52,303 nucleotides of DNA from an uncultured Candidatus Micrarchaeota archaeon (GTDB taxonomy: Archaea > Micrarchaeota > Micrarchaeia > Anstonellales > Anstonellaceae), in the NCBI GenBank assembly GCA_903923795.1, contig CAIXYX010000139.1:1-52303 (forward strand), written 5' to 3'. Position numbers and translations under genes: made by a program. This document shows positions 37,995 to 48,307 of this stretch, piece after piece. The notes under the pieces were generated by a model, which did no database searches, was not told the origin of the DNA, and saw only the letters and a program-made list of their open reading frames with translations. Every line of letters begins with the position of its first letter. The stretch's first letter is position 1.

Positions 37995-38234
37995 GGTATC
38001 AACCTCGATTAACGTCCAAGCTAAGGAGCTTTGGGCCCTTAAGCAGGGGGTTATTTTTAAAAATGGGTGAAAAGATAAGCGCCTACCTTATATATAAACT
38101 TTTCGCTCAGCCCGCCTCGTCGTGGAATCGTCGGGCGGCTATTTATGCCGTCGAGAAGAAGTTTGGGCCAGCATTTATAAACTCACCGACGTTGTGGACG
38201 GTGGGCCGAACTCTTTAGAAATGGTAAAATGAAT

Positions 38235-38466
38235 TGCCATGGGGGAGATTTGAACTCCCGGCTTCCAGATTTCCCAAGAAATGCCTTTGTTCGTCATCAA
38301 TCGCGCGCAGAGGCGCGATCTCCGCACTCATATAATCGCAAATACCCCGGAAAGCAGGGAGTTTCCTCCTCATTTCTTTTCTTTTCCGAGGTTTTCTTTT
38401 CTTTCCGCAGAAAGAAAAGAAAAGCTCTATGAGTCTGGCACTCTAGCCAAGCTGAGTTACCATGGC
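38235..38466 (-). tRNA. tRNA-Met/Ile2 (anticodon CAT) with a 157-nt intron at 37/38
   Basis: The 5' exon is GCCATGG TA ACTC AGCTTGGCTA GAGT G CCAGA CTCATA (38466-38428). The 3' exon is A TCTGG AAGCC GGGAG TTCAAAT CTCCC CCATGGC A (38270-38235). The G1-C72 pair and the anticodon stem argue for an elongator rather than an initiator. Confidence 0.75.
38371..38424 (+). repeat. Y1-Y2-loop-R polypyrimidine/polypurine module, copy A (inside the tRNA-Met intron, antisense to it)
   Basis: Y1 is CATTTCTTTTCTTTTCC. Y2 is TTTTCTTTTCTTTC, the loop is CGCA, and R is GAAAGAAAAGAAAA. Confidence 0.8.
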
Positions 38467-38503
38467 AAATTTTTCGCTTGGCTATTTTATTGTCGCGACA
38501 AAG

Positions 38504-38534: not shown

Positions 38535-38789
38535 GGAATGGCCGGCGGCCGCCCACGGGGTCCTCCCGAGGAAGTTCTGCCCACGGCGCAAATATCTGGC
38601 GGGCGCAAAAGCCCGTATCTCGGAACAGAAACGATACGACGAGCAGCTCGCTATCAGATGACCCTGAATGGGGATGGAGAGGCTCATCGATGAAACGGCC
38701 GAGATCCACCAGATGGCCGTGCAAGGCGCTTTACGCGCCGCTCAGTCGAATGCGGTTAGAACCAAAGGCAGACTATGGCCGGCCGTTCC
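38535..38789 (+). ncRNA. rnpB: RNase P RNA (small, ~255 nt)
   Basis: A 12-bp terminal helix pairs GGAAUGGCCGGC with GCCGGCCGUUCC. A CR-I-like GAGGAAGUUCUGCC pairs with the 3' GGCAGACU (P4). ACAGAAA and UAGAACC elements and several GC hairpins are present, and there is no credible ORF. Confidence 0.65.
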
Positions 38790-38800
38790 TCATAATCTTC

Positions 38801-38838
38801 ATCTGGCGAAGCCAGATGCTCTTCTCCTTTTCTTTCCC
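38801..38838 (+). terminator. Hairpin plus T/C-rich tract after RNase P RNA
   Basis: ATCTGGC-GAA-GCCAGAT (38801-38817) is followed by CTTCTCCTTTTCTTTCCC. Confidence 0.45.
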
Positions 38839-38868
38839 AGGGGTTTCTTTTCGCGGAGCGAAAAGAAA
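38821..38868 (+). repeat. Y1-Y2-loop-R module, copy B (3' of RNase P RNA)
   Basis: Y1 is CTTCTCCTTTTCTTTCCC. Y2 is TTTCTTTTCGC, the loop is GGA, and R is GCGAAAAGAAA. Confidence 0.8.
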
Positions 38869-39091
38869 GGCCTTGTTACACTTCTTTATATCTTTTTTCA
38901 GGTAATATTTCTTCATGCGTTACGGCTTGGAACCAGATATTTTCCCGCTTTCCACGTCTAATCGCAAGAATAGGAACTTCTTCTGTTTTGCCAGCTGAAT
39001 TCACGGTCCAATAGCTGGCAAACGAATTGGGCCGCCGCAAAAAATTTCGAAGAAAAGAAATATCAAACAAACTCATCCGAGGTGCAGTTCT

Positions 39092-46241: not shown

Positions 46242-46943
46242 TCAGATTTTCGACGCAGATGCCATGAAGTCGATGAGCAGCTCCTCGAAAAGCGGGCATC
46301 TCCCGCTGCACTCGGTCAGGCCGCTGAAGCGCGCTGTCAGGTCGGCATTGCCATAGGCTTTTACCAGCGAGTCGAGTTTCGCGACAGCTTTCGCGGCCGC
46401 GGTTTCATCCCCGGCGGCTCGCGCGTCATACCAATAGGTTGCCTCAATCACCATGGCATGTCCTGCCAAGCGGGGGTCTCTCGCCGCCAATTCTCCGGCC
46501 GCCTGTATATAGACACGATTATCACAGCCTGAATTGGCGCAGGAGAGCACGGGCGCCCATGTCATGCGGGACGCTTCGTTGTCGCCGGTTGTCAATTTGG
46601 CGCGGATGCCATCGGTCTGAATCGACAGGTCGGCATATGTGCCGTTCTTGGCAGTCTGGCGTAAGGTAAAGAGGGCGGTGAGATAATCGTCAGTTTCGCC
46701 GGATGATGCGCTCATCATGCCGAAGCCCAAAGCTTTGGCGTTCGAGAAATCCATGCGCATGTGCCCATTCGCGCCCGTTCCCGCTCCGGCGCCAATCAGG
46801 CCGATGCTCTCGAGGTAATAGGAGAGGAGCCAGAGGCTGAATAGGGCCCATATGGCAAGGAAAAGGACGAGCGCGAGGCGTTGCCAGCTGAACTTGAAGC
46901 TTTGGGGCTTTCCCCAACCCTTTCCGGCGTCATTGGCTCGCAT
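46242..46943 (-). CDS. Hypothetical membrane-anchored protein
   Basis: 233-aa ORF with one N-terminal TM (LALVLFLAIWALFSLWLLSYYL). No motif recognised. Confidence 0.5.
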   Translation of the reverse strand: MRANDAGKGWGKPQSFKFSWQRLALVLFLAIWALFSLWLLSYYLESIGLIGAGAGTGANGHMRMDFSNAKALGFGMMSASSGETDDYLTALFTLRQTAKNGTYADLSIQTDGIRAKLTTGDNEASRMTWAPVLSCANSGCDNRVYIQAAGELAARDPRLAGHAMVIEATYWYDARAAGDETAAAKAVAKLDSLVKAYGNADLTARFSGLTECSGRCPLFEELLIDFMASASKI

Positions 46944-47010: not shown

Positions 47011-47023
47011 AGCCCCCGACGAG
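47011..47023 (-). pseudogene. Orphan tRNA 3'-end fragment (CTCGT CGGGGGC T)
   Basis: The 13 nt are identical to the T-stem 3' strand plus acceptor 3' strand of the half-tRNA at 47101-47135. Module copy C directly precedes it. Confidence 0.6.
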
Positions 47024-47026
47024 CCC

Positions 47027-47070
47027 TTTTCTTTCTCCGAAAGAAAAGTGCTTCACCCCAAAAGAAAGAG
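47027..47070 (-). repeat. Y1-Y2-loop-R module, copy C
   Basis: The minus strand reads CTCTTTCTTTT GGGGTGAAGCAC TTTTCTTTC GGA GAAAGAAAA, then GGGCTC. A CCGGCC-GAA-GGCCGG hairpin (47076-47090) precedes it on that strand. Confidence 0.8.
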
Positions 47071-47100
47071 ATTTGCCGGCCTTCGGCCGGAATTTGATTT

Positions 47101-47135
47101 AGCCCCCGACGAGGATTGAACTCGTGACCTCGTGC
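47101..47135 (-). pseudogene. tRNA-Thr-like 3' half (positions 39-73) with no 5' half in the window
   Basis: GCACG AGGTC ACGAG TTCAATC CTCGT CGGGGGC T. It has the same anticodon-stem strand, variable loop and acceptor strand as the intact tRNA-Thr, but a different T-stem. Confidence 0.65.
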
Positions 47136-47141
47136 GAGCCC

Positions 47142-47190
47142 TTTTTCTTTTCGCGGAAAAGAAAAAGTGCTTCAGCCCAAAAAGAAAAGG
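47142..47190 (-). repeat. Y1-Y2-loop-R module, copy D
   Basis: The minus strand reads CCTTTTCTTTTT GGGCTGAAGCAC TTTTTCTTTTC CGC GAAAAGAAAAA, then GGGCTC, which abuts the tRNA 3' half. Confidence 0.8.
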
Positions 47191-47195
47191 CAATT

Positions 47196-47267
47196 AGCCC
47201 CCGATGGGGATTGAACCCATGACCTCGTGCTTACCATGCACGCGCTCTACCGCTGAGCTACAGGGGC
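47196..47267 (-). tRNA. tRNA-Thr (anticodon GGT)
   Basis: GCCCCTG TA GCTC AGCGGTA GAGC G CGTGC ATGGTAA GCACG AGGTC ATGGG TTCAATC CCCAT CGGGGGC T. This gives a full cloverleaf with no intron. Confidence 0.9.
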
Positions 47268-47308: not shown

Positions 47309-48307
47309 CTATTGAACGGCCCGTCTGTCAATAATATCTTCCGCATCCGCTCCCGTGCCAATCAATCCGACTTTTACGCCCACCTTCTTCTCGATTTCGG
47401 CAACGAAAGCCTTGGCGTCCGCATCAAGCTCGTCGAATTTCCTCTTCTTGGCGCATTTGGGGAATTTGACATCCAATTTCGTCACGGCGAGGTAATTGGC
47501 CGAATTTATCATGGCGGCGGTTTTGATTTCGTCCCAGACAAGATTCGGATTCGTGCGCCGAGGCCGGCCTGTGACAGTGCCATATTCCTGCATGCCGATT
47601 TTCTTTGCCTCCTCCTCGCTCAATTCGCCGGGCATCGGGCCCGAGCCGACTCGAGTGGTGTATGCCTTGATGACCATAATAACGTCTTTCACCTTGCGCG
47701 GGCCCAAGCCCACTTCGGCGCAAATAGTCGAGGCGCTCACATCCTTGCTTGTCACAAATGGATAAGTGCCGTACAAGTTGGAGAGCATGAAACCCTGGCT
47801 GCCCTCGACAAGAACATTTTTGGTGGAATTCACAAGCTCTGGCACGTCACCCAAATATTTTTTGAGGCGAGGCTCTGATTCGACTGTGGTGGCCGTTCTC
47901 GAAGCCCGTGCGGCCTGCGTGGGGCCCATACCAGTTTTGGTTGTGCCGATTTTTTTCGAATTCTCCGATGCCGCGTCAAGGTCTTTCATTTCTTGTGTGA
48001 TGAGAGTGGCGCGCCTGTCGATGATGCACCGATTTCCCAATTCGAAATTCGCGACCTCTTTGAGAAACACGTCGGCGTCAATCAATACGCCTGCGCCTAT
48101 GGCGAGCTTCGCCTCCTTCTCCACCAAACCGGACGGCACGAGGCGTATCGAGTATTTCTTTCCCTTGTACTCGACGCTGTGCCCCGCATTAGGCCCGCCG
48201 CCGCCGCGCGCAATCACTTCGGGTTTGTCATGCAGCGCGAGGTAGGAGATTATCTTGCCCTTGCCCTCGTCCCCATACTGGCCTCCGACGACTACGGTGA
48301 CGCTCAT
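47309..48307 (-). CDS. purA: Adenylosuccinate synthetase (short archaeal form)
   Basis: P-loop GGQYGDEGKGKI, GGGPNAGH and TTKTGMGP motifs. 332 aa. Confidence 0.95.
   Translation of the reverse strand: MSVTVVVGGQYGDEGKGKIISYLALHDKPEVIARGGGGPNAGHSVEYKGKKYSIRLVPSGLVEKEAKLAIGAGVLIDADVFLKEVANFELGNRCIIDRRATLITQEMKDLDAASENSKKIGTTKTGMGPTQAARASRTATTVESEPRLKKYLGDVPELVNSTKNVLVEGSQGFMLSNLYGTYPFVTSKDVSASTICAEVGLGPRKVKDVIMVIKAYTTRVGSGPMPGELSEEEAKKIGMQEYGTVTGRPRRTNPNLVWDEIKTAAMINSANYLAVTKLDVKFPKCAKKRKFDELDADAKAFVAEIEKKVGVKVGLIGTGADAEDIIDRRAVQ

Follow-up and report, generated by a model that had tools for sequence, protein, structure and literature searches.

When an intact tRNA gene is followed by pieces of a second one, it must be asked whether the pieces still work, were left behind by foreign DNA, or were copied locally. 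Here, we address this question for a tRNA-Thr(GGU) locus of an uncultured Candidatus Micrarchaeota archaeon, in which the gene is trailed by two 3' fragments ("orphans"), each fused to a hairpin module. The locus lies on contig C139, which we call the window (52,303 nt). It belongs to a 1.24-Mb metagenome-assembled genome (MAG) that is 88% complete with 3.3% contamination. An earlier sequence-only reading had proposed the three explanations that are weighed below. See Table 1 for the parts of the locus.

Table 1. Parts of the tRNA-Thr(GGU) locus and its neighbors, in minus-strand reading order
Feature	Position in window	Strand	Remarks
Short-form adenylosuccinate synthetase-like (purA-like) gene, upstream neighbor	47309..48307	(-)	Synteny anchor
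tRNA-Thr(GGU), intact	47196..47267	(-)	ARAGORN; Rfam tRNA 67.5 bits
AATTG spacer, tRNA 3' end to module D	47191..47195	(-)	
Module D, 55 nt, GGGCTC at end	47136..47190	(-)	Fold -15.4 kcal/mol
Orphan 1, 35 nt, tRNA-Thr(GGU) positions 39-73, ACGAG/CTCGT T stem	47101..47135	(-)	
A/T-rich spacer, 30 nt, including GAA-loop hairpin	47071..47100	(-)	
GAA-loop hairpin CCGGCCGAAGGCCGG = CCGGCC-GAA-GGCCGG	47076-47090	(-)	Fold -10.8 kcal/mol, z -2.2
Module C, 50 nt, GGGCTC at end	47021..47070	(-)	
Orphan 2, GTCGGGGGCT, tRNA positions 64-73	47011..47020	(-)	
Conserved membrane-protein gene, native downstream neighbor	46242..46943	(-)	Without Pfam hit

The layout given by the sequence-only reading was borne out: intact tRNA-Thr(GGU), AATTG, module D, the 35-mer, GAA hairpin, module C, and short fragment. 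Alignment likewise confirmed that the 35-nt half begins at tRNA position 39 and is preceded by GGGCTC. Module D is built of a pyrimidine tract, GGGCTGAAGCAC, and a 12-bp Y/R hairpin ending in GGGCTC, and it holds T5 runs, making it terminator-like. The first AA of AATTG recurs after orphan 1, so the repeat unit is positions 39-73 plus AA. The repeats at the locus, 39-73 (+AA) and 64-73 (+A), share one orientation and end at the tRNA 3' end. Between them lie 60 and 80 non-coding nt, and these gaps contain neither an integrase gene, whole or partitioned, nor any other gene. The surroundings are those of related genomes, as the adenylosuccinate synthetase-like neighbor is also found in G001 and G003-G006, and the intergenic flank on the side of the membrane-protein gene can be aligned by eye with that of G003.

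Orphan 1 equals the intact gene at 31 of 35 positions, a match with a chance probability of ~4e-15 per position by arithmetic estimate. All of the differences fall in the T stem, as had been stated before. The four changes are two double compensatory ones: from the intact gene to orphan 1, pair 50-64 goes from T:A to C:G and pair 52-62 from G:C to A:T, giving T stems of ATGGG/CCCAT and ACGAG/CTCGT, respectively. Orphan 2 had been described as the last 13 nt of the same half. Its tRNA origin stands, with 10-11 nt unambiguously tRNA, but its first CTC is the constant end of the module, since that CTC end is present in all module C copies. The proposed 27-nt deletion relating the short fragment to the long one did not hold up, as 25 nt separate the two CTCG repeats. 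Two origins would fit orphan 2: an 11-nt repeat, or a 39-73 copy from which those 25 nt have been lost.

We searched relatives with a pattern permitting both T-stem types, which returned 15 species-level Micrarchaeota genomes. All 15 species have the ACGAG/CTCGT type, in an intact tRNA-Thr(GGU) whose 3' half is identical to orphan 1 (35/35). Three congeners (G001, G003, and G005) carry an intact gene with exactly the orphan 1 sequence beside the same purA-like gene, and two more (G004 and G006) show a single acceptor-position difference, CGAGGGCT for CGGGGGCT. The ATGGG/CCCAT arm, by comparison, is present in 6 of 176 genomes of the order (≤1 mismatch) and in none of the six congeners. It is native to tRNA-Thr(GGU) next to purA in the sister genus G011 (34/35) and sits in tRNA-Thr(CGU) in G010. 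On metagenome contig L048, the order is purA 3' end, tRNA-Thr, and tyrosine integrase (PF00589, 2.3e-20); this tRNA-Thr is identical to the intact gene studied here over 72/72 positions, and the integrase is directly adjacent. Positions 1-49 of the intact gene are identical to those of the congeners and its 5' flank is orthologous, as is the flank beyond orphan 2 (G001, G003, and G005 compared).

At the level of sequence, these comparisons show that orphan 1 keeps the ancestral, phylum-wide Micrarchaeota allele and that the T arm of the intact gene was imported from a sister-genus lineage. By the same alignments, the native locus holds a foreign T arm, with its native end displaced 60 nt downstream. 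The suggestion that the orphan derives from another Thr isoacceptor or a foreign attP is thus inverted: the orphan is of native type and the intact gene has the foreign T stem. Divergence in situ is very unlikely, as it would predict the opposite of what is seen: the copy free of constraint is unchanged, and it is the constrained one in which two pairs have been swapped with compensation. A search of viral contigs for a free viral or plasmid donor of the ATGGG-type fragment gave no match. In two congeners (L002 and L003, from G003 and G005), tRNA-Thr(GGU) has the opposite orientation with respect to purA and the membrane-protein gene, and no orphans are left; this flip may be an inversion between oppositely oriented repeats.

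We interpret the two fragments as nested att-like scars of miniature hairpin cassettes, that is, as non-functional relics, with a probability of roughly 0.7. The intact tRNA stands at one border of the repeats, the reconstituted gene has the incoming allele, and the displaced copy has the host allele. Nested att scars were one of three options offered by the sequence-only reading and are the best supported of them. The polarity of the locus is unusually clean, with an ancestral dead copy and a live gene that carries an imported T arm, which argues for recombination with foreign DNA and not for drift. Allele polarity, native flanks, nesting, and the use of this tRNA by integrases together favor an att-type recombination. 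Two small non-coding hairpin cassettes would have recombined successively into the 3' part of tRNA-Thr(GGU), the first comprising the spacer, hairpin, and module C, and the later one AATTG and module D. Each time, a complete tRNA would have remained on the upstream side of the cassette while the older 3' end was shifted downstream, as at the attL/attR borders of integrative elements. For the later event, we infer att-type recombination of the chromosomal gene with a donor in which tRNA-Thr positions 39-73 of the ATGGG/CCCAT type were joined to module D, with the crossover within the shared GCACGAGGTCA. Oligo-T runs act as terminators in archaea, and the T5 run of module D is predicted to stop the tRNA transcript, probably leaving both orphans silent behind this T-rich module.

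Integrase-bearing elements occupy the same tRNA in relatives. A tyrosine integrase lies directly behind tRNA-Thr(GGU) in L023 (1.6e-21), L029, L032, and L048. Two elements at this gene are complete, an 11.7-kb element in G176 (L029/L050) with a 16-nt repeat, TCCTCGTCGGGGGCTT, and a 6.4-kb element in G177 (L032/L051) with a 17-nt repeat, AATCCTCGTCGGGGGCT, and an integrase at 5.2e-21. The full-size elements and the mini-inserts described below have a common repeat core. Integrases prefer anticodon-loop, T-loop, and 3'-end sublocations of tRNA genes. The orphan starts (38/39, 48-54, and 58-62) would coincide with the preferred sublocations.

Several observations weaken a simple integrase story. 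The repeats enclose no gene, circles of ~95-160 bp are poor recombinase substrates, and no resemblance to the modules is seen in the arms of the full-size elements. A cassette with a fixed attP is difficult to reconcile with identical modules at different tRNAs, each beside a repeat of the local gene. Targets as diverse as 5' gene ends and a C/D-like sRNA gene would have to be served by two tyrosine recombinases, the only ones in this genome, on C144 (beside tRNA-Leu) and C1. No module is present at the visible junction of either recombinase, and the contig ends before attR. Of the integrase regions in relatives, those of G005 and G008 and one of the two in G006 have no tRNA nearby; in the second one of G006 (L038), the integrase has tRNA-Glu(CUC) just upstream. 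The enzyme involved may have carried out either integrase-type recombination or target-duplicating insertion, and the orphans are relics either way.

The modules belong to a family that recurs throughout this genome. Module C is 100% identical (50/50) to a copy behind tRNA-Leu(CAG) on contig C118, and module D has a 98% identical copy on C82 beside a 5' tRNA fragment. At the GGGCT(C) end, each of the six module C copies borders tRNA-derived DNA: three face the 3' terminus of an intact tRNA, tail to tail, one meets a 5' exon at the start of an intron, and two meet orphans. The five other module C copies have a CTGGCGC-NNN-GCGCCAG hairpin upstream, analogous to the GAA-loop hairpin, so that a hairpin of this kind is the regular upstream partner of module C. 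In reversed orientation, the family starts many canonical tRNA introns (A37/GAGCC..., with the slash marking the junction). Modules C and D contain an internal hairpin, but their ends form no inverted repeats, and repeat lengths within the family vary (11, 23, 37, and 56 nt). These features do not fit a transposase-type MITE, which has terminal inverted repeats and a short target duplication of fixed length.

Duplicated gene pieces accompany the modules at several other loci. tRNA-Arg(UCU) (C118:20930-21290) has a 16-nt 5' orphan with module upstream and, downstream, a 133-nt double module with inverted ends and a perfect 23-nt repeat, TTCAAATCTCACCGGGCCCGAAC. At tRNA-Leu(CAG), a 26-nt tRNA piece (56 nt including flank) is repeated around the module C copy. 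An orphan of the same orientation flanks tRNA-Asn (anticodon GUU by eye; miscalled by ARAGORN), and a foreign-type fragment flanks the tRNA-Thr(UGU) of this genome. Contig C82 carries a 5' piece. The arrangement extends beyond tRNAs: a C/D-box-like sRNA gene (CGATGATGA ... CTGAGC; C65:10800-11020 and C8:1-260) has its promoter and 5' end doubled around a hairpin module, with the junction 5' orphan/GAGCCC..., and several positions distinguish the two copies.

Relatives show the same architecture. A module joined to position 39 is also found in tRNA-Thr(CGU) of G002 and tRNA-Thr(UGU) of G003. Behind the G003 gene (L067, C23:4600-5100) stands a perfect 112-nt tandem, in which positions 39-73, spacer, and a module ending in AAGCTC occur twice; upstream of the gene is a 5' orphan (positions 1-11) with module. 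The G002 gene (L068, C45:3450-3900) has a 3' orphan half with a chimeric T stem, 5' ATGGG and 3' CTCGT, as would fit a crossover inside the T loop between the two types of T arm. At tRNA-Thr(GGU) of G006, the intron bears a module, and the gene is accompanied by one 5' orphan and two 3' orphans, one of the latter of CCCAT type; a module D-like module lies reversed within this intron, and G006 carries a 51-nt module at both Thr(GGU) and Thr(UGU). In L053, an intact ATGGG-type tRNA-Thr(CGU) is followed by three nested orphans. The combination of an intact tRNA-Thr with an orphan of the other T-stem type is therefore not limited to this locus, as it occurs in L053, L054, G002, and G006. Smaller inserts were also seen. 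Five species (L021, L022, L026, L028, and L033) have ~65-nt two-hairpin inserts with 12-15-nt repeats of the tRNA-Thr 3' end. In MAG CAYWFJ01, tRNA-Thr(GGU) exists in a filled (L022) and an empty (L027) form, differing by a 65-nt insert and a 14-nt repeat, CCTCGTCGGGGGCT. Finally, L054 (G178:C2:22000-22500) has a two-hairpin mini-insert within the anticodon arm of tRNA-Thr(UGU) with a 13-nt repeat, TTGCCTTGTAAGC, which by its sequence would be in effect an intron flanked by a duplication.

A functional reading takes the 35-mer as a split or alternative 3' exon that would be connected, in trans or in cis, with a 5' half, giving a second tRNA-Thr. Orphan 1 does begin at position 39 with its T arm and acceptor strand intact, and pairing of a module with a reverse-complement copy is possible in principle. 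Furthermore, tRNA-Thr(CGU) was not found in this 88%-complete assembly, though it is present in three congeners (G002, G005, and G006). However, an intact tRNA-Thr(GGU) with the same anticodon stands 60 nt upstream of orphan 1, and the anticodon-stem strand of the orphan, GCACG, is that of the GGU gene, where the CGU and UGU genes seen have ACAGG. Since it carries the GGU-specific strand, orphan 1 cannot be a CGU half. A search of the whole 88%-complete assembly for a matching 5' half, as had been proposed, recovered Thr-type 5' halves or anticodon-stem partners only in the two intact Thr genes, GGU in the window and UGU on C129. The sole reverse-complement module D (C82) lies behind a 13-nt 5' piece of an unrelated tRNA. 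By eye, no TATA-like box is present in the 60 nt upstream of either orphan, where the sequence is module, whereas, of the 26 tRNA genes examined in this genome, nearly all carry a CTTTAWAT-like box ~28-45 nt upstream. Real introns at tRNA-Thr(GGU) in G006 and G011 end in ...CCATAA/AGCACG, pairing with the anticodon loop ATGG and supplying A38. Orphan 1, preceded by GGGCTC, has ...AAGGGCTC/GCACG, with neither the CCAT nor the A38 of this bulge-helix-bulge arrangement. The remaining orphans start in the T loop or consist of the acceptor strand alone and cannot be exons. The split-tRNA reading is rejected on these grounds, and an exon of any kind is very improbable. We also discarded two related ideas. 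An old 3' exon of an intron-containing ancestor would need the missing A38 and CCAT pairing segment, and a processing signal for RNase P of the minihelix type, like the MALAT1 3' end, has weak GGCUC-GGGCU pairing and does not extend to the other orphans, which have no T stem.

A serious rival to att-type recombination is a target-duplicating mini-insertion, in which mobile modules enter stable-RNA genes at loops or stem junctions and copy the stretch up to the gene end. Both repeat copies would then be host-derived at first, and the foreign T arm would have come independently, for instance through short-patch conversion or when an integrase element integrated and was excised again. Such an insertion would account for identical modules beside repeats of different local genes (Leu and Thr here; Thr(GGU) and Thr(UGU) in G006), for the identity of most repeat pairs (Arg 23/23, Leu 55/56, and L022 14/14), and for repeats at 5' ends, in the C/D-like sRNA gene, and inside an anticodon arm. 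The spread of orphan boundaries (38/39, 48/49, 53/54, and 59-62; 5' side 11-17 and 33) and the empty/filled polymorphism (L027/L022) fit it as well. It is burdened by the second, independent event needed for the allele swap here and in L053, G002, and G006, and by repeats of 11 to 56 nt, which match no known transposase. The one IS200/IS605 TnpA gene (C118) was rejected as a mobilizer, as no matching ends were found and the family is not known to make target duplications. Overall, we consider this rival unlikely, if well worth keeping in mind. Local tandem duplication followed by drift, without foreign DNA, has precedent in the perfect tandem of G003, and CTCG microhomology accounts for the short fragment. 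Here, though, it would have to leave the unconstrained copy with zero changes and give the constrained copy two double compensatory ones, producing an allele identical to one native in another genus. The spacers of the two units are unrelated, and modules C and D have clearly diverged, with several substitutions and five single-base gaps. The tandem duplication that the sequence-only reading had also put forward is thus not a recent event at this locus, and we give the duplication-and-drift account hardly any credence. The least probable account is an assembly chimera, in which the contig joins reads of two Micrarchaeota populations inside the tRNA. The MAG is fragmented, with its measured contamination, and other tRNA loci are split into alternative contigs (C43/C87 and C105/C106), yet two template switches would be needed within ~150 nt of a 52-kb contig with both flanks native, and the same architecture is found in independent assemblies. 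What survives of the initial interpretation is the att scars; the split tRNA, the tandem duplication as a recent event, and the derivation of the orphan from another isoacceptor or a foreign attP do not.

Full-text literature searches turned up no earlier account of such cassettes in Micrarchaeota, and several known systems offer partial parallels to the att-like scars. CIMEs of Streptococcus ICEs are att-flanked remnants, kilobases long, derived from ICEs by deletion. Like CIMEs, the cassettes are non-autonomous DNA with att repeats at a tRNA or gene end and accumulate in tandem with other elements; unlike them, they are ~50-130 nt, structured, and not visibly derived from full-size elements. 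In Thermoproteales, Fujishima and colleagues reportedly described in 2010 transposed bulge-helix-bulge introns, near-identical short non-coding sequences shared among tRNA genes of a single genome. Many canonical introns similarly begin with a module here, but the copies at this locus lie outside the mature tRNA, with duplicated gene ends and without a splice motif. Archaeal integrative elements duplicate attL/attR in tRNA genes, as with SSV1 in tRNA-Arg and pNOB8-type plasmids (PMC3293823). As in those elements, an intact tRNA is reconstituted at one border, successive events are nested, the reconstituted gene inherits differences of the incoming site, and integrase elements use the same tRNA in relatives. 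The differences are that no integrase gene is present here, that the "element" is a 60-80-nt non-coding hairpin cassette, and that members of the cassette family are also found at 5' gene ends and as the 5' part of tRNA introns. Among published models, the closest is the integration-driven tRNA disruption proposed for the heterogeneous tRNA-Thr(GGU) locus of Caldiarchaeum subterraneum (Sugahara et al. 2012, PMC3293823). The two cases share the tRNA species, an orphan fragment beside an intact gene, population-level heterogeneity, and a proposed link of mobile-element integration, intron gain, and tRNA fragmentation. In Caldiarchaeum, the 5' orphan is 1.8 kb away with a recombinase gene in between, whereas here the 3' orphans are 60-80 nt apart with no gene, and the contrast of ancestral and imported alleles is clear only here.

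How archaeal tRNA genes become interrupted, fragmented, and split is a long-standing question, and the models rest on few loci, such as tRNA-Thr of Caldiarchaeum. A 2026 preprint on Asgard tRNA introns still leaves the route of intron arrival open. The present locus ties recombination to a repeat family that starts many tRNA introns in the same genome. Tentatively, and with more doubt than confidence, we suggest that Micrarchaeota harbor a family of mobile, triple-helix-capable non-coding hairpin cassettes that would enter stable-RNA genes at loops, spare the gene by copying or bringing its end, and, when inside the gene, become bulge-helix-bulge introns. If so, the locus would be a snapshot of a route to archaeal tRNA introns, orphan halves, and eventually split genes. 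Should the cassettes be mobile themselves, they would represent a novel kind of non-autonomous element and supply tRNA introns and halves directly; if they are no more than eroded att scars, this would be an ordinary but instructive integration hot spot.

The module family also appears at other stable-RNA genes. In the window, the archaeal RNase P RNA is followed by a hairpin of the GAA-loop type and a module of the same family (38788-38870), and no duplicated end of this gene lies behind it despite the module. Rfam reported only 31 tRNA hits for the whole assembly, and many tRNAs with long or non-canonical introns were missed or misnamed by ARAGORN. Two tRNA-Met(CAU) paralogues (window 38234-38467 and C31:329-540) share long introns (157 and 136 nt), each with a module at its start and with a conserved, C/D-box-like TGATGA...CTGGA stretch. 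Two alleles of one tRNA gene with a T-loop intron, apparently Ile(UAU) by eye, are found at C43:6125-6270 and C87:1-260. One has a 30-nt intron and the other an intron of ~110 nt that starts with a module, and the assembly broke at this point.
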